A stretch of DNA of 64,000 nt from Eubacteriales bacterium (GTDB taxonomy: Bacteria; Bacillota; Clostridia; Oscillospirales; CAG-382). Numbering within the stretch: position 1 is the stretch's first letter; each line of letters begins with the position of its first letter. The notes beneath the pieces were generated by a model. That model worked only from the letters and a program-made list of their open reading frames with translations, had not been told where the DNA came from and made no database searches. Below, piece after piece: positions 9,018-25,139 of this stretch. The DNA lies in NCBI GenBank assembly GCA_045535465.1, contig JAZSLS010000100.1:559-64558 (forward strand), given 5' to 3'. The position numbers and the translations under genes are program-made.

Positions 9018-9716
9018 ATGGCAGATATGGAGAAAAATCTTTGCTCGCCTACCTCGGAAGCCGAGGCAGCGGCTGCAAAGGCGGAGGACCTTGGCGGAAT
9101 AACTATGCACACGGGCAGGGGCGTGATACACGCTTTGATTATAGCGGGTCAGATAGAAGGACATCTGGAAGCACCCGTAACGGCAAAATCCACTAAGTAC
9201 GAGCAATGTATACCTACACTTGTGGCGGTAGAGGAAAGCAGCGAGGTGGAGGGGCTTTTGATTTTAATAAATACCATAGGCGGTGACGTGGAAGCCGGGC
9301 TTGCTATAGCAGAGCTTATATCCGGTATGAAAAAGCCAACGGTATCCTTGGTTTTAGGCGGCGGTCACTCCATAGGCGTTCCGTTGGCGGTGTCTGCGAA
9401 AAAGTCCTTTATAGTGCCCTCGGCAACTATGACCATACACCCCGTAAGGACAACCGGCTTGGTGATAGGCGTACCTCAAAGCTTTAGCTACTTTGAAAAG
9501 ATGCAGGACAGAATAACGGATTTTATAGTAAAAAACAGTCACATAGGCGCAAAGCGTATAAAAGAGCTTATGCTTAACACCAACGAAATGACCACGGATA
9601 TAGGTACCGTTCTTGACGGGGTGGAGGCGGTAAGGGAAGGGCTTATAGATGCGGTGGGAGGGCTTGGAGATGCCTTGGACGCTCTACACACTATGGCAAA
9701 GGAAGGAAAAGGTTAA
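9018..9716 (+). CDS. ClpP-fold protein, TepA (translocation-enhancing protein)-like
   Basis: ClpP/crotonase-like core LILINTIGGDVEAGLAIAELI...TMTIHPV. AGGAGG RBS. In B. subtilis tepA lies in the same region as spoVF. Confidence 0.75.
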   Translation: MADMEKNLCSPTSEAEAAAAKAEDLGGITMHTGRGVIHALIIAGQIEGHLEAPVTAKSTKYEQCIPTLVAVEESSEVEGLLILINTIGGDVEAGLAIAELISGMKKPTVSLVLGGGHSIGVPLAVSAKKSFIVPSATMTIHPVRTTGLVIGVPQSFSYFEKMQDRITDFIVKNSHIGAKRIKELMLNTNEMTTDIGTVLDGVEAVREGLIDAVGGLGDALDALHTMAKEGKG

Positions 9717-16515: not shown

Positions 16516-17643
16516 ATGTTAAAAAGAGCATTTAACAGCGACGTAATTGACAGCGCAGTACTCGGCGCAATAGAGGAAAGAGCCTTTCCCGGTGCGCAGA
16601 TAGCTATCGGCGACAAGGACGGCATAATTTACAGCGCAAGCTATGGCTACAAGCGTGTTTTTGATGATGACGCTCCTTGCTTTGACAAAGAGTCTGCCGT
16701 TCTCACGGGTGAAAAGCCTCCCGTTGATATGGATACCCTTTACGATATGGCATCCTGCACCAAAATAATGTCCACCACTATGGTTGCCCTTCGTATGATA
16801 GACGAAGGTAAGATAGCTCTTTACGACAGCATAAGCCGTTTTATAGACGTTCCCGAGGATAAAAAGGGCATAGAGCTTCGCCATCTTCTCACGCATACCA
16901 GCGGTATCAAGGCGCATTTCCTTCTTGAAAACGATGGCAGAGACGCAAGCGAAGCCGCAAAGATAGTCCTTGACCATCCGCTTTCCACGCCTACGGGTAC
17001 TAAGGTAGAGTATACCTGTATGGGCTATATCCTTTTGGGTAAGATACTTGAAAAGCTTGGCGATATGCCCCTTGATGAGCTGGCAACCAAAAAGGTATGG
17101 CAGCCCCTTGGTATGGATAACACCTGTTACCGTCCTCTTGATAAGGGCTATACCAATATTGCCGCTACCGAATACACCGAAGACTTGGGTGCATATAAGG
17201 TAGGCATCGTTCACGACGAAAACGCACGCTTTTTAGGCGGCGTAAGCGCAAACGCAGGCGTGTTCTCTAATGCTAGCGACGTTGCGGCGCTTGCAACAAT
17301 GCTTTCTGCAGGCGGCATCCATAAGGGCAAAATGTTCCTTTCTCCTTCTCTCATTAAGCTTGCACGTACCGATATGACGGCAGGTCTTGGAGAGGGCAGA
17401 GGTCTTGGCTTTGTTGTAAAGCAGGCAGGCACATTAAGCGCTATGGGCGACCTTTATCCGGGCGGCTCCTTCGGTCACAACGGCTATACGGGCACATCTC
17501 TTTATACTCACGGCGATAATGGCTTGTACGTTATCCTTTTGGCAAACAGAGTTCATTTTACCCGTAACAGTGACAGGATTTTCCGTTTCCGCCGTACCTT
17601 CCACAACCTTTGTACCGCAGAATACGAAAGAGCAACCATTTAG
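16516..17643 (+). CDS. serine hydrolase, class C beta-lactamase / DD-peptidase family
   Basis: SxxK motif in MASCTKIM; HLLTHTSG; 375 aa. AGGAGG RBS. Confidence 0.8.
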   Translation: MLKRAFNSDVIDSAVLGAIEERAFPGAQIAIGDKDGIIYSASYGYKRVFDDDAPCFDKESAVLTGEKPPVDMDTLYDMASCTKIMSTTMVALRMIDEGKIALYDSISRFIDVPEDKKGIELRHLLTHTSGIKAHFLLENDGRDASEAAKIVLDHPLSTPTGTKVEYTCMGYILLGKILEKLGDMPLDELATKKVWQPLGMDNTCYRPLDKGYTNIAATEYTEDLGAYKVGIVHDENARFLGGVSANAGVFSNASDVAALATMLSAGGIHKGKMFLSPSLIKLARTDMTAGLGEGRGLGFVVKQAGTLSAMGDLYPGGSFGHNGYTGTSLYTHGDNGLYVILLANRVHFTRNSDRIFRFRRTFHNLCTAEYERATI

Positions 17644-18533
17644 CTTGCGCTTCGGCTTTTGGGTATCCTCAGCCTTATCTCAATAAAATCACCTCCGTCG
17701 CTGTCCTCTCGTTCTACGTTAAAGCCTGCGGCAGAGGCAAGGCCTACTACCTTGTCAACGGAGTTTATAAAAAACTTAATATCACTAACGGTGCCCACAA
17801 GTCTTTGTGTGGCACCCTTCTTTTTGTTTTGCTTAGTCGGTTTTTGTATACCGGTAAGATAGCTTTCCACCAGCATCTCGCTTTCTTCGGCGTTATATCC
17901 GTTTTTAACGGAGGCATCCAGCAGCTTAAGCCTTGTGTCAATATTGGTTATACGCAAAAAGGCACGTGCTTGTCTTTCGGGCATACGGCTTTCTCTTATA
18001 ATGTGTCTTTCGTCTTCCGTGTATTTTAAAAGCCTAAGCTTGTTTGCAACGGTAGGCTGGCTAAGCCCCAGGCTTGCGGCAAGCTCTGCTTGAGTAAGAC
18101 CGCAAACAATCATAATGTTTTGCATAGCGGCGGCTTGCTCAAAAAAATCCAGGTCGTTGCGGAAAGCGTTTTCCGCCAGCGCCATCTGGGCGCTTTCTCC
18201 CGAGGTGGCGGTAATCAGCATACAGGGCACGGTTTCAAGCCCTGCCATCCTCGATGCACGCCAGCGCCGTTCTCCCGCAATTATTTCGTATACGGCTTTT
18301 GCTCTTACCGTTTGCCCGTTAAGGCTTATTTCAGGCGTGTTTTCTCGTCTTCGTACGCAAATAGGCTGAATAATTCCGTTTTGCTTTATACTTTCGGAAA
18401 GCTTTACAAGCTCTTCGTTGTCAAAAATGCGTCTTGGCTGAAGCGGATTTGGTACAAGACAGTCAAGAGGAATATGTATAAGGCACGGAACGTTGGATTT
18501 TTTTGTAAAGCTTAAAATATTTGAAAGCTTCAA
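17640..18533 (-). CDS. ParB/Spo0J/Noc-family DNA-binding protein (orphan, no parA nearby)
   Basis: ParB box GERRWRASRMAG and an HTH region QAELAASLGLSQPTVANKLRLL. I move the start to TTG 18533 (AAGGAGGTG 9 nt upstream). The track's ATG at 18578 lies inside the predicted -10 element. Confidence 0.8.
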   Translation of the reverse strand: MKLSNILSFTKKSNVPCLIHIPLDCLVPNPLQPRRIFDNEELVKLSESIKQNGIIQPICVRRRENTPEISLNGQTVRAKAVYEIIAGERRWRASRMAGLETVPCMLITATSGESAQMALAENAFRNDLDFFEQAAAMQNIMIVCGLTQAELAASLGLSQPTVANKLRLLKYTEDERHIIRESRMPERQARAFLRITNIDTRLKLLDASVKNGYNAEESEMLVESYLTGIQKPTKQNKKKGATQRLVGTVSDIKFFINSVDKVVGLASAAGFNVEREDSDGGDFIEIRLRIPKSRSAS

Positions 18534-18568
18534 TTTATAGCACCTCCTTGGTTTTGTCCCCGGCGGTA

Positions 18569-18577
18569 ATTGTAGCA
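18569..18577 (-). promoter_or_regulatory. extended -10 promoter element (TGcTACAAT) for the ParB-like gene
   Basis: The minus strand reads TGCTACAAT about 36 nt upstream of the TTG start. No good -35 element. Confidence 0.45.
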
Positions 18578-18649
18578 TACGCCCTTTGTCGAAAACGCAA
18601 AAAAACTGTCACCGTCAAGGTAACAGCTACTCTTTTTGTTGGTTTTGTC

Positions 18650-19138
18650 TATATGATAAAAAGCGGCAAAGCGCCGCTTTTCCTACTTAACAAAATAAAA
18701 TGTTGTTTTTTGCGTTGTGAATAGGTGCGTTTTATAAGAGCAAAACAAAAAGCGGAGGGTATGGAGAAGGGAAAATAGGCTCGAATGAACGAACTAAGGC
18801 GCAAACTGTACTAAGTACAGTAAGCCGAAAGTTCGTGCATAGCAAAAAACATATAAATCAGTCAAAAGGAAAAGCGGCAAAGCGCCGCTTTTCCTACTTA
18901 ACAAAATAAAATGTTGTTTTTTGCGTTGTGAATAGGTGCGTTTTATAAGAGCAAAACAAAAAGCGGAGGGTATGGAGAAGGAAAAATAGCATTGAATGTA
19001 CGAACCAAGGCGAAAGCTGTACTAAGTACTGCGAGCCGCAGGTTCGTGCATAGCAAAAAACATATAAATCAGTCAAAAGGAAAAGCGGCAAAGCGCCGCT
19101 TTTCCTACTTAACAAAATAAAATGTTGTTTTTTGCGTT
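18650..19138. repeat. 211-bp tandem direct repeat, 2.3 copies, each carrying a GC hairpin/T-tract and a variable hairpin
   Basis: Equivalent G residues lie at 18663, 18874 and 19085, giving an exact 211-bp period. Copies 1 and 2 are identical over ~140 nt but differ at 13 of 60 positions in 18771-18830 versus 18982-19041. Copy 3 is the first 59 nt only. Confidence 0.95.
19080..19105 (-). terminator. hpt terminator hairpin (also repeated at 18658-18683 and 18869-18894)
   Basis: AAGCGGC-AAAGC-GCCGCTT is flanked by an A run and a T run. On the minus strand it is followed by TTTTCCTTTT. Confidence 0.75.
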
Positions 19139-19149
19139 CGATGTTATTT

Positions 19150-19689
19150 TTACTCTCCATACTCGGCTATGTAGGGGAGGTTGCGGTAATACTCCCCGCA
19201 ATCCAACCCATACCCAATAACAAAATGGTCGGGAATGGTAAACAAAGCCTTATCTGCTTCAAAATCCACAACTCTGCGGCTGGGCTTATCAAGCAGGGTA
19301 ATAACCTTAAGGGACAAAGGACGTCTTGCCTTAAGAAGCTTAACAACCTCGCTTAAAGTTCTGCCTGTGTCAATAATATCCTCCACGATGATAACGTGGT
19401 AATTGCTTATATCCTGAGAAAGGTCCATAGTAATGGCAACGGTCCCCGTGGAAACAGTACCGTCAAAATAGCTTTTTGCACACATAAAGCCTATTTCGCA
19501 AGGAACTGTAATGGCACGGCAAAGGTCAGCCATAAAAACAAAAGCGCCCTTAAGTATGCTAACCAAAAGAATAGGTCTGCCGTCGTAGCTTTCACTTATC
19601 TCCTTGCCTGCTTTGGCAATAGCATCGTCAATCTCTTCCTTGGTTATAAGCACTCTTTTTATTTTTTTATCAAAAGCTTCTTTTGTCAT
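19150..19689 (-). CDS. hpt: hypoxanthine phosphoribosyltransferase
   Basis: PRPP-binding motif VIIVEDIIDTGRTL; 179 aa. Confidence 0.95.
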   Translation of the reverse strand: MTKEAFDKKIKRVLITKEEIDDAIAKAGKEISESYDGRPILLVSILKGAFVFMADLCRAITVPCEIGFMCAKSYFDGTVSTGTVAITMDLSQDISNYHVIIVEDIIDTGRTLSEVVKLLKARRPLSLKVITLLDKPSRRVVDFEADKALFTIPDHFVIGYGLDCGEYYRNLPYIAEYGE

Positions 19690-19841: not shown

Positions 19842-20879
19842 ATGTTTAAGAACAAAACGTTGTTACTTACCGGTGGCACAGGAAGCTTTGGTAATGCCGT
19901 GCTTAACCGTTTTTTGGATACCGATATAGGTGAGATACGCATTTTCTCTCGTGATGAAAAAAAACAGGACGATATGAGGCACGATTTTCAGGCGAGAATG
20001 CCTGAGGCTGCTTCTAAGATAAAGTTTTATATTGGTGACGTTCGTGATATAGCTTCCGTTCGTAACGCTATGCACGGCGTTGACTATATTTTCCACGCTG
20101 CAGCCCTTAAGCAGGTTCCTTCTTGCGAGTTTTTTCCTGTTGAAGCAGTAAAAACCAATGTTTTGGGTACAGATAACGTGCTTACAGCGGCAATAGATGC
20201 AGGCGTAAAAAGGGTTATATGCCTTTCCACCGACAAGGCGGCTTATCCCGTAAACGCTATGGGCACCTCCAAGGCTATGATGGAAAAGGTAGTGGTTGCA
20301 AAATCCCGCACCGTGCATCCTGATAAAACTACTATCTGTTGTACCCGTTACGGCAACGTTATGTGCAGCCGCGGCTCTGTTATCCCATTGTGGATAGAGC
20401 AGATAAAGGCAGGCAACCCCATCACTATAACCGAGCCCTCTATGACTCGTTTTATAATGTCCTTGGATGAGGCTGTTGACTTGGTGCTTTTTGCATTCAA
20501 AAACGGCATTTCGGGCGATATACTTGTTCAAAAGGCTCCTGCCTGCACCATAGAGACCTTAGCAAAGGCGGTTTGCTCCTTGTTTAACCCCAATACGGAG
20601 ATAAAGGTTATAGGCATACGCCACGGTGAAAAGATGTATGAAACCTTGCTTACCAACGAGGAATGTACCTCTGCTATGGATATGGGCAACTTTTACCGTG
20701 TACCCTGCGATAAGCGTGACCTTAACTATGATAAATTTTTCTCAAACGGTGACGTGGAACGTAACGTACTTACGGAGTTTAATTCCAACAACACCACAAT
20801 TTTGGGCGTTGAGGCAGTAAAGGAAAAGCTTCTCAGCCTAAAATATATAAGGGACGAGCTTGAGGCGATTAACCAATGA
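19842..20879 (+). CDS. fnlA: UDP-N-acetylglucosamine 4,6-dehydratase/5-epimerase (FnlA/CapE/WbjB type)
   Basis: LLLTGGTGSFGNAV, SRDEKKQ and STDKA motifs. 345 aa, typical of CapE/FnlA. Confidence 0.88.
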   Translation: MFKNKTLLLTGGTGSFGNAVLNRFLDTDIGEIRIFSRDEKKQDDMRHDFQARMPEAASKIKFYIGDVRDIASVRNAMHGVDYIFHAAALKQVPSCEFFPVEAVKTNVLGTDNVLTAAIDAGVKRVICLSTDKAAYPVNAMGTSKAMMEKVVVAKSRTVHPDKTTICCTRYGNVMCSRGSVIPLWIEQIKAGNPITITEPSMTRFIMSLDEAVDLVLFAFKNGISGDILVQKAPACTIETLAKAVCSLFNPNTEIKVIGIRHGEKMYETLLTNEECTSAMDMGNFYRVPCDKRDLNYDKFFSNGDVERNVLTEFNSNNTTILGVEAVKEKLLSLKYIRDELEAINQ

Positions 20880-22075
20880 GGATACTTGTAACAGGCGCCA
20901 ATGGCTTTGTAGGTAAAAACCTTACTGCCGCACTTAATAATATAAAAGACGGCAAGGACAAAACAAGGCAAGGCATAAAAATATCAAAAGTTTTTGAGTA
21001 CGATATAGATACTTCGGCTGAACTTCTCGACAAATACTGCGCAGAGGCGGATTTTGTTTTCAACCTTGCGGGTGTAAACCGTCCCGATGACCCTGCCCAG
21101 TTTATGCAAGGCAATTTCGGCTTTATTGATACGCTGCTTAAGTGCCTTAAAAAACACGGCAATACTTGTCCCCTTATGGTGTCATCTTCTATACAGGCAA
21201 CCTGTATAGGCCGGTATGATAACGACTACGGCAGAAGCAAAAAGGCAGGGGAAAAGCTTGTTTTTGCTTACGGTAAGGAAGCGGGAGCTAAAGTGTTGGT
21301 CTACCGTTTTCCCAATCTTTTCGGCAAGTGGTGTAAACCAAACTATAACAGCGCCGTGGCTACCTTCTGCCATAATAAGGCGCACGACCTGCCCATAACC
21401 GTAAGTGATCCCAACGTAACGCTGGAGCTTTTGTATATAGATGACCTTATAAACGAAATGCTTGATGCGCTTGAGGGCAAAGGGCATAGGTGCAAGTTTG
21501 AGGGCATAAATACCGTATTTACGGAAGAGGGCGCCTACTACGGCGCACCCGTTACCCATAAGGTAAGCTTGGGTGAGATTGTGCAGCTTCTTGATAGCTT
21601 CAAAGCGCAACCATCTACCTTGCTTATGCCTGAGATACCCAAGGACAGCTTTGCAAAAAAGCTGTATTCCACCTATCTTTCGTATCTGCCAAAGGAAAAG
21701 GTTTCGTTTCCCTTAAAGATGAATTCGGACCACAGAGGCAGCTTTACCGAGCTTTTAAAGACTGCGTCAAACGGTCAGTTCAGCGTTAATATTTCAAAAG
21801 CAGGCATAACTAAGGGCGAACACTGGCACCACAGCAAGTGGGAGCTTTTTATAGTAGTAAGCGGTAAAGCATTGATACAGCAGAGAAAAATAGGCACGAA
21901 CGAGGTTTTAAGCTTTTACGTAAGCGGTGACAGGATAGAGGCAGTTCATATGCTGCCGGGTTATACCCATAACATAATCAATCTTAGCGAAAGCGAGGAT
22001 TTGGTTACCCTTATGTGGGCAAACGAGCAGTTTGACCCCACACACCCCGATACGTTTTACGAGGTAGTAGAATGA
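20876..22075 (+). CDS. fnlB: UDP-2-acetamido-2,6-dideoxy-L-talose reductase (FnlB/CapF/WbjC type; SDR plus cupin)
   Basis: N-terminal VTGANGFVGKNL Rossmann fold and a C-terminal cupin-like domain (GEHWHHSKWELFIVVSG). 4-nt overlaps on both sides. Confidence 0.85.
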   Translation: MRILVTGANGFVGKNLTAALNNIKDGKDKTRQGIKISKVFEYDIDTSAELLDKYCAEADFVFNLAGVNRPDDPAQFMQGNFGFIDTLLKCLKKHGNTCPLMVSSSIQATCIGRYDNDYGRSKKAGEKLVFAYGKEAGAKVLVYRFPNLFGKWCKPNYNSAVATFCHNKAHDLPITVSDPNVTLELLYIDDLINEMLDALEGKGHRCKFEGINTVFTEEGAYYGAPVTHKVSLGEIVQLLDSFKAQPSTLLMPEIPKDSFAKKLYSTYLSYLPKEKVSFPLKMNSDHRGSFTELLKTASNGQFSVNISKAGITKGEHWHHSKWELFIVVSGKALIQQRKIGTNEVLSFYVSGDRIEAVHMLPGYTHNIINLSESEDLVTLMWANEQFDPTHPDTFYEVVE

Positions 22076-24744: not shown

Positions 24745-24926
24745 GTCGTGCATATCACGGCGAAGCCGTGTATATCATCAATACGAAGCATTGTATTTCA
24801 CCAACACGAAGTGTTGTATATCATCAAGCCGCAGGAAAATACACGCCGGTGCGTGATGATATACAGCCCCATAGGGGCTGATGATATGCACGACTGTGTC
24901 GTGATGATATGCCAAACTTGCGGCTT
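24745..24926. repeat. array of seven 12-bp motifs TGTATATCATCA (4 direct, 3 inverted) plus nested dyad symmetries
   Basis: Direct copies at 24749, 24769, 24792 and 24815. Inverted copies (TGATGATATRCA) at 24854, 24879 and 24902. Spacing is 20-25 bp. See findings. Confidence 0.85.
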
Positions 24927-24972: not shown

Positions 24973-25057
24973 TGGTGGGAGCGGGTGGATTCGAACCACC
25001 GAAGTCGTTGACAACAGATTTACAGTCTGCCCCCTTTGGCCACTCGGGAACACTCCC
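24973..25057 (-). tRNA. tRNA-Tyr (anticodon GUA), long variable arm
   Basis: The reverse complement is GGGAGTGTTCCCGAGTGGCCAAAGGGGGCAGACTGTAAATCTGTTGTCAACGACTTCGGTGGTTCGAATCCACCCGCTCCCACCA. Anticodon loop CTGTAAA; CCA is encoded. Confidence 0.95.
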
Positions 25058-25064
25058 CCATTAT

Positions 25065-25139
25065 TGGAGCTGGTGAAGGGAGTCGAACCCCCAACCTGCT
25101 GATTACAAATCAGCTGCTCTGCCATTGAGCTACACCAGC
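25065..25139 (-). tRNA. tRNA-Thr (anticodon UGU)
   Basis: The reverse complement is GCTGGTGTAGCTCAATGGCAGAGCAGCTGATTTGTAATCAGCAGGTTGGGGGTTCGACTCCCTTCACCAGCTCCA. Anticodon loop TTTGTAA; CCA is encoded. Confidence 0.92.

Follow-up and report, generated by a model that had tools for sequence, protein, structure and literature searches.

We asked what lies between hpt and a ParB-like gene in a 64-kb window of Eubacteriales DNA (the whole stretch that was analysed, from contig JAZSLS010000100.1), where a 211-bp sequence is repeated in tandem. The original prediction, drawn from the letters alone, was that this array is a duplicated regulatory RNA locus and not inert spacer. Our answer differs in strength from one part of that claim to the next. 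That the array is a duplicated small-RNA (sRNA) locus, young and restricted to its lineage, on whichever strand, is on balance probable. More specifically, and tentatively, its sequence can be read as two tandem paralogous sRNA genes on the minus strand, that is, in the direction of hpt and parB, which would be young, lineage-restricted and under selection. Because the hairpin of the unit has been preserved through 9 substitutions and a pyrimidine-rich block has been conserved relative to a sister species, the evidence argues that the locus is not inert spacer, and this part of the prediction stands. The other part, a discrete RNA, is not established; both candidate -10 elements lack the final T.

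How is the array built? Tandem Repeats Finder (TRF) reported a single array at 18659-19138 with a period of 211, 2.3 copies, 95% matches, no indels and a score of 869, and no other tandem repeat of the window has a period longer than 23 bp. The two full units were 94% identical in a repeat search of the window; nhmmer likewise supports the array (Table 1). Each unit is made of 58 nt copied from the 3' end and terminator of hpt (segment 'a', of which the array holds three identical copies) plus a body of ~153 nt. Read on the minus strand, the order is the hpt stop codon, 'a', body 2, 'a', body 1 (each body 153 nt), 'a', 30 nt, a second terminator (terminator 2), the parB promoter and parB. On this strand the body combines TTGACT-18-TATGCA, a weak promoter-like site, with a hairpin of three helices, a short linker that varies and the long pyrimidine-rich CUAUUUUCCCUUCUCCAUACCCUCCGCUUUUUGUUUUG. 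In plus-strand orientation, the order in the unit is TTGCGT-17-TATAAG, GGAGGG-U-AUG with a 5-codon open reading frame (ORF), the hairpin and, reversed, the terminator of segment 'a' (terminator 1). The descriptive part of the original prediction was borne out. TRF and the repeat search recovered the 2.3-copy repeat, and the GC hairpin with flanking A and T runs, AAAAGCGGCAAAGCGCCGCTTTTCC, could be read from the sequence. The minus-strand TTGACT and the pyrimidine-rich CCTTCTCCATACCCTCCGC (18752-18769 and 18963-18980) are present in both units, as are, on the plus strand, TTGCGT-17-TATAAG, GGAGGG and the MEKGK and MEKEK ORFs. The flanking genes are indeed hpt and a ParB-like gene, the partial third copy is the hpt terminator, and the hairpin is variable, all 13 differences between the copies lying in columns 40-99 of the unit.

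Do these differences follow the structure of the unit? The 13 substitutions between units 1 and 2 are confined to a 60-nt zone and the other 151 nt are identical, a clustering for which simulation gave P~2e-6. The outer stem of the hairpin in this zone has 7-11 bp; inside it are a middle stem, GGC/GCC, an inner ACUGUAC/GUACAGU stem and a 3-nt loop (UUA). Both copies fold alike on either strand, with z-scores of -2.8 to -5.0 (for unit 1, -4.0 on the minus and -4.4 on the plus strand). The 56-nt hairpin itself contains nine of the 13 substitutions. Four of them make up two compensated pairs (in unit 2, U-A to C-G and A-U to G-C), three lie in loops, one breaks a pair and one turns a mismatch into G·U, the last on the plus strand only. 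Under random placement ~4.8 broken pairs would be expected against the one observed, and an outcome with at least two compensated pairs and at most one broken pair had P~0.001. This value comes from direct simulation, used instead of a shuffle control that is powerless on two sequences (119/500).

Next, we asked whether the body is conserved beyond this genome. Relatives were found via the ParB-like protein, and one further locus (L019) was reached through its Hpt protein. The ~153-nt body is known only here and, at the same locus, in one sister species with 91% ParB identity, represented by L001 (GCA_045630105.1) and L026 (Logan run SRR27608099), two strains that are 99% identical to each other in their genes. 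Compared with L001, the 45-nt pyrimidine-rich block has 3 substitutions and 1 indel (~92% identical), whereas the fourfold-degenerate sites of the two flanking genes are 66% identical to those of the sister species (n=113 and n=177; total 290). The block is thus better conserved than expected at the neutral rate (binomial, P~1e-4) and than the fourfold sites (Fisher P=4e-4). It is also accessible: in minus-strand models its unpaired probability is 0.93-0.98, compared with 0.55-0.64 for the purine block in plus-strand models. Each unit holds a single copy of the C-rich sequence, in the linker only, as UCCC in unit 1 and UCCU in unit 2. The sister-species contigs read TTCGAGCCTATTTTTCCTTCCCCATACCCTCCG…GGTTTTG, 14 nt, terminator 2 and the parB promoter. 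L001 and L026 are one substitution and one indel apart in the run of T that follows the C-rich block.

Where did the unit come from? Terminator 1 is a symmetric hairpin of A-tract, GC stem and U-tract with the loop GCUUU and a stem of -18.8 kcal/mol. Its U-tail scores are 3.9-4.2 on the minus and 3.4 on the plus strand (copy 2, 3.86 and 3.44, respectively; copy 1, 4.16). A simple terminator scan did not list it, probably as the scan counts the U-tract into the stem. The hpt 3' end and terminator of the relative L002 align with copy 3 of segment 'a' at 77% over 124 nt, with terminator 1 and the preceding 35 nt included, which identifies the partial copy as the native hpt terminator. Terminator 2 has a U-tail score of 5.02, is common to L001, L026, L020 and L021 in the alignment, and aligns with the hpt terminator of L020 and L021; because of its G·U pairs and long U-tract on the minus strand, it is functional on that strand only. 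As terminator 1 matches the hpt terminator of L002 and terminator 2 that of L020 and L021, the gap contains new material flanked by two terminators of ancestral type. Both are orthologous to functional hpt terminators of relatives, and the locus is otherwise ordinary. The alignments suggest that, in the ancestor shared with the sister species, the ~153-nt body was inserted, or came into being, between the terminator of hpt and the second terminator. The 211-bp module of hpt terminator and body would then have been duplicated by unequal recombination, and the copies would have been homogenised since, except for the 60-nt zone around the hairpin. We also observed an 11-nt perfect inverted match, AACGCAAAAAA / TTTTTTGCGTT, at 18594-18604 / 18706-18716, by which the boundary sequence of the repeat unit recurs inverted at the tail of terminator 2. 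It may be a trace of how the locus was assembled.

Which strand would be transcribed? Neither strand has a good sigma-A promoter, and a consensus promoter scan listed neither unit promoter, only TTCACA-18-TATTTT just upstream of terminator 1. Several results weigh against minus-strand genes, and the first of them concern the promoter and the fold. TTGACT-18-TATGCA, the sole minus-strand candidate, lacks the conserved final T of the -10 element, and for this reason the scan did not list it. A transcript from it would start near column 41, inside the 5' arm of the outer stem, and the stem that is cut in this way holds one of the two compensated pairs. In addition, the column-82 substitution of unit 2 creates a G·U pair if the plus strand is read but leaves a C·A mismatch if the minus strand is read. 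The unit 2 hairpin is therefore steadier on the plus strand (-27.9 versus -19.9 kcal/mol), where its 11-bp outer stem is uninterrupted (z -5.0).

The G·U pair would suit a functional plus-strand RNA, with each unit a self-contained transcription unit made of TTGCGT-17-TATAAG, a purine-rich 5' region (GGAGGG, GGAGAAGG; three GGA motifs), a vestigial or decoy mini-ORF, the hairpin, an A-rich linker and terminator 1. Such an RNA could be an sRNA, a decoy for the ribosome or a GGA-binding protein or, on read-through, antisense to the hpt 3' end. All structural elements lie between the promoter-like site and the terminator on this strand, so that the entire hairpin would be transcribed; terminator 1 is symmetric, with a plus-strand tail score near the minus-strand value; and the start and stop of the 5-codon ORF are kept in all four sequences compared. 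Nevertheless, we consider a plus-strand RNA unlikely. Its -10 ends in G, its -35 matches at only 3 of 6 positions and, as said, the scan does not list the site. The sister species has lost the promoter-like stretch from its parB-proximal copy, where the block is nonetheless ~92% conserved. The purine block is the less accessible of the two, and no gene lies downstream on this strand. Moreover, the GGAGG of the mini-ORF is only 2 nt from the AUG, and a Shine-Dalgarno core 2 nt from AUG is too close for efficient initiation; given this spacing and a peptide that varies (MEKGK, MEKEK and, in the sister species, MGKEK), translation of the mini-ORF is unlikely. For the minus strand speak this deletion of the plus-strand promoter-like stretch and the arrangement in L001 and L026, where the block is followed by 27 nt and then terminator 2, a compact layout of hairpin, seed and terminator. 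The minus strand is thus somewhat more likely than the plus strand.

Other coding possibilities were also considered. The units share no ORF on either strand because a period of 211 shifts the frame by one per unit, and the array's ORFs, of 51, 88 and 42 aa, vary from unit to unit and from frame to frame. The 88-aa pseudo-ORF spanning unit 2 has no homologue in protein databases; the 51-aa ORF matched two repeat proteins, and these matches were judged to be artefacts of repeats or of hairpin translation. A leader-peptide attenuator was rejected, as the Shine-Dalgarno spacing is wrong, the peptide varies and the next plus-strand feature is the hpt 3' end in antisense. A type I toxin-antitoxin system was rejected for want of a small hydrophobic ORF conserved between units, and an inverton because the variable zones are co-linear and not inverted.

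The remaining results against minus-strand genes bear on whether the locus has an RNA function at all. The block is not significantly better kept than the adjacent DNA of terminator 2 and the promoter (84% identical; Fisher P=0.32), which is itself functional. The pairing targets suggested for the C-rich block did not appear: a duplex scan of the C-rich and G-rich blocks over the 64-kb window found no translation-start targets, and the best non-self duplexes of the block (201-250 and 9601-9660) fall inside ORFs and are thus uninformative. In the lineages at 81%, 80%, 75% and 74% ParB identity and in L019 the gene order is hpt, parB, a beta-lactamase-fold gene and prfA, and their hpt-parB gap of 130-180 nt contains a single terminator and no trace of the body. 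L021, one of these, instead has a gene of 228 aa in the gap. The element is therefore dispensable for the lineage. Finally, the comparison rests on two copies here and the 3' part of one sister-species copy, and the paired changes in the hairpin can stem from template-switch mutation, with no need for selection: quasi-palindromes are known hotspots for templated mutations that alter both arms together without selection (PMC7202029).

Could the array then be a structural by-product without RNA function? In that case a recombination-prone gap would have gained a terminator and filler, and slippage or unequal crossover would have duplicated 211 bp. Template switching would explain the hairpin changes, recent duplication or gene conversion the identity of the copies, and recent exchange between the sister species the conserved block. 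The gap is highly plastic, as the relatives carry at least five unrelated hpt terminators and L021 a whole 228-aa gene, and hpt borders a glycan-gene locus that differs in every relative. The absence of the element from relatives at or below 81% ParB identity, of a convincing promoter on either strand and of an Rfam match, together with the comparison of the block with its neighbouring DNA, points the same way. However, a recent neutral duplication leaves unexplained why there are 13 substitutions in 60 nt and none in 151 nt, and an old one why the block is ~92% identical where silent sites are at 66%. Template switching raises the complementarity of arms, and three helices with one broken pair are left unexplained by it. 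We therefore regard a by-product as a real but doubtful possibility.

How might minus-strand RNAs act? Each would consist of a 5' structured hairpin, a single-stranded CU-rich stretch, UUUUCCCUUCUCCAUACCCUCC, and an intrinsic terminator. The CU-rich stretch would pair with purine-rich sequences of the Shine-Dalgarno type in target mRNAs and block their translation, as Firmicutes C-rich sRNAs do. By analogy, the closest systems in function would be these C-rich sRNAs that mask the Shine-Dalgarno sequence, and the closest in layout would be adjacent paralogous sRNA pairs; the element belongs to none of the families compared here.

Among multicopy sRNA genes, lhrC1-4 are adjacent to one another. 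LhrC1-5 are multicopy sRNAs of Listeria monocytogenes whose CU-rich motif pairs with the Shine-Dalgarno region of targets, and they have a UCCC motif in loop A, another in the linker and a third in the terminator loop, the three being redundant (PMC4132741). Like them, the array consists of near-identical copies in a Firmicute (here two full tandem copies, 94%), with a hairpin, a single-stranded CU-rich stretch and an intrinsic terminator in each unit. Unlike them, it has a single CU-rich tract per unit, in the linker only, its loops being UUA and GCUUU; its units are about twice as long and are partly a copied gene terminator; and there is no sequence or covariance-model similarity (no LhrC/rli22-type Rfam match at E up to 10). 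RsaE/RoxS are sRNAs of Firmicutes with C-rich regions complementary to G-rich ribosome-binding sites (PMC4409812, PMC6158497). The array resembles them in its accessible C-rich sequence and in an architecture of the Hfq-independent type that ends in a terminator. However, RsaE is conserved across Bacillales whereas the array element is confined to a pair of sister species, its C-rich sequence forms a single long CU block and not a series of CCC(C) motifs in loops, and the RsaE Rfam model had no match in 18400-19400 at E up to 10.

Adjacent paralogous sRNA pairs are exemplified by OmrA/OmrB and PrrF1/PrrF2, which are proteobacterial and Hfq-dependent and have mapped promoters and targets; the seed of OmrA/B is the conserved 5' end. 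The tandem copies of the array resemble these pairs in being near-identical at the ends and diverged in the centre, as under concerted evolution. Ibs/Sib and Ldr/Rdl are tandem type I toxin-antitoxin repeats in intergenic regions, with units of a few hundred bp. The array shares with them its intergenic tandem units and the possibility of transcripts on both strands; unlike them, it has no small hydrophobic ORF conserved between units.

A more specific proposal can be made, to which we assign only a slight chance: that the units are paralogous riboregulators with a constant scaffold and a variable module, or plus-strand GGA-rich decoys for the ribosome or a CsrA-type protein, the first in Clostridia. 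With a constant scaffold, identity of the terminator, the CU-rich block and the flanks would be maintained by gene conversion, whereas divergence would be permitted, or driven, only in the hairpin and linker, whose fold would be kept, and each copy would acquire a different specificity or protein partner. Two features of the array look distinctive, the recycled gene terminator in the unit and the confinement of divergence to one structured module. If the units are transcribed, we would be seeing a very young sRNA family soon after its birth, confined to a pair of sister species among uncultured gut-type Clostridia. Recycling of a gene terminator would have supplied part of it, and it would already be duplicated, with its divergence limited to that module. 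It would be a small, clean example of the birth and diversification of riboregulators and would add an sRNA candidate to a clade with almost none known. If they are not transcribed, the array is no more than a structural variant of an intergenic gap that is prone to recombination. The locus has no bearing on any long-standing open question.

Does the unit occur elsewhere? Searching Rfam, a check proposed for the array, matched it to no family. With Rfam 15 only three tRNAs in the whole 64-kb window pass the gathering thresholds, and at E up to 10 the best match in 18400-19400 reached 28 bits against thresholds of 80-115 (MIR5229, BSnc115); such sub-threshold matches reflect the terminator palindrome. 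Exact and degenerate patterns of the invariant block had no match in viral contigs; in 185,579 species-representative genomes they gave first none and then 3 chance matches, and in Joint Genome Institute (JGI) metagenomes 2 chance matches. In BLAST comparisons of the genome and metagenome matches, similarity was confined to 21-28 nt around the pattern. The unit had no blastn match in plasmid and phage collections, which argues against a mobile-element origin, and no further copies were present in the 64-kb window or in 28 fetched loci. That the unit is a generic dispersed repeat, which would have spoken against an RNA locus, was thus not borne out in the window, the fetched loci or the public collections, and the sister species is the sole other carrier.

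The searches also bear on a role at the level of DNA, in which the array would be a centromere-like or operator array for the Noc-like ParB (compare the repeats by plasmid parB/sopB) or a copy of a dispersed extragenic repeat or miniature inverted-repeat transposable element (MITE). The array does lie directly upstream of a ParB-family gene, and each unit contains palindromes, GTAC-TTA-GTAC and CACGAAC…GTTCGTG. However, orthologues of the ParB-like gene in L002, L008, L019, L020 and L022 have no upstream repeats, the 64-kb window contains no parS (up to 3 mismatches) or Noc-binding site (NBS; up to 2 mismatches), and the palindrome arms differ between the two copies. As for a dispersed repeat, no other copies were found in the window, the 28 loci, plasmids, phages or viral contigs, the genome and metagenome matches extend over those 21-28 nt only, and no terminal inverted repeats of a MITE were seen on reading the sequence. 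Of all the explanations we give this one the least credence.

Finally, we asked whether the array could be an artefact of metagenome assembly, with two strain variants of a-body-a stitched in tandem or a longer array collapsed to 2.3 copies. The window comes from a 65.6-kb NCBI contig and the relatives are metagenome-assembled genomes, derived from JGI samples 3300029705 and 3300018493-5 and from SRR27608xxx. The contigs of L001 (positions 1-45) and L026 (1-37) both start inside the unit, just 3' of the variable zone, and the differences between the copies are just where strain variants would show them. That two independent assemblies break at one place suggests a repeat or a strain-variable segment there. 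Logan is built with k = 31, and L026 first diverges from the internal copy of this window exactly at base 31, as would fit a graph branch between internal and terminal copies. A real repeat would itself cause the contig breaks in the sister species. Furthermore, the exact repeats within the array extend to 112 and 97 nt at most, so that k above 112 or read pairs resolve the array uniquely, and the body-a-body junction in the contig needs reads that span the 58-nt 'a'. An artefact is thus very unlikely. For the far side of the break in the sister species we searched with Hpt, which is too conserved to pick out the sister species. Two other contigs, L027 and L028, end just after hpt, and their 3' untranslated regions are unrelated.

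Table 1. Positions in the 64-kb window of the array, its internal features and its neighbours
Feature	Position	Strand	Basis
Whole array: units 1 / 2 / partial 3	18659-18869 / 18870-19080 / 19081-19138	.	TRF, repeat search, nhmmer
Variable zone, minus-strand unit columns 40-99	18771-18830 (unit 1), 18982-19041 (unit 2)	.	Unit alignment
Internal three-helix hairpin, unit 1	18785-18840	.	Folds, inverted repeat, pair counts
Internal hairpin, unit 2, architecture as in unit 1	18996-19051	.	Folds, pair counts
Conserved pyrimidine-rich block, …CUAUUUUCCCUUCUCCAUACCCUCCGCUUUUUGUUUUG	18741-18785 (unit 1), 18952-18996 (unit 2)	minus	Sister-species alignment
Weak promoter-like TTGACT-N18-TATGCA, TGc just upstream	18836-18865 (unit 1), 19047-19076 (unit 2)	minus	Read from sequence
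Weak promoter-like TTGCGT-N17-TATAAG	18710-18738 (unit 1), 18921-18949 (unit 2)	plus	Read from sequence
5-codon mini-ORF, MEKGK (unit 1) and MEKEK (unit 2)	18761-18778, 18972-18989	plus	Read from sequence
Segment 'a' copy 3, native hpt 3' untranslated region and terminator 1; arms 19078-19089 / 19095-19106	19081-19138	minus	L002 alignment, inverted repeat
Segment 'a' copy 2; arms 18867-18878 / 18884-18895	18870-18927	minus	100% identical to copy 3, inverted repeat
Segment 'a' copy 1, ends the array on the parB side	18659-18716	minus	Identity, inverted repeat
Terminator 2, intrinsic, minus strand only, between array and parB promoter	18604-18628	minus	Terminator scan
Extended -10 TGcTACAAT, own promoter of the parB-like gene	18569-18577	minus	Read from sequence; conserved in all relatives
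Noc-like ParB-family gene, 297 aa, TTG start, flanking only	17640-18533	minus	Pfam, NCBIfam
hpt (hypoxanthine phosphoribosyltransferase), source of the copied terminator	19150-19689	minus	TIGR01203, 196.7 bits

The genes on either side of the array also showed features of their own. The ParB-like product contains ParB_N and HTH_ParB, is closest to Noc while scoring under the Noc cut-off, and is the database protein P0243 apart from its TTG start codon. Upstream of this gene TTTTTCGAC-N12/13-TGTGnTAnAAT is conserved in all relatives (18569-18600 of the window; L002:2810-2850, L008:4935-4970, L019, L020 and L022). TTTTTCGAC sits too near the -10 for a standard -35 and may serve as an operator or be recognised by another sigma factor. 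The 228-aa gene of L021 (626-1312, compared with L020:127-290) has a faint LRR_4 match and lies between hpt and parB; since another sample that encodes an identical ParB protein is without this gene, the hpt-parB gap is an insertion and recombination hot spot in the lineage. On the far side of hpt, the polysaccharide-biosynthesis genes (19842-22075 of the window) differ in every relative. The gene beyond hpt encodes an FnlA/CapE-like epimerase in the window and a 623-aa CapD-like protein in L002, and in L008 and L022 DegT, Bac_transf and glycosyltransferases are found there. As these genes differ throughout (window, L002, L008, L019 and L022), hpt marks the edge of a variable glycan locus. At 24761-24827, ~150 bp away from two tRNA genes (24976-25139), there is a shorter tandem repeat, with 2.9 copies of a 23-bp unit and 79% matches. 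Finally, P0245 (485 aa, from the representative library) is a predicted protein of seven ~66-aa repeats, each with LLSRKAGSAPLLI, which resembles a translated AAAGCGG…CCGCTTT terminator hairpin. P0245 may thus be a spurious ORF across a ~198-bp tandem array with one terminator per unit in another organism.

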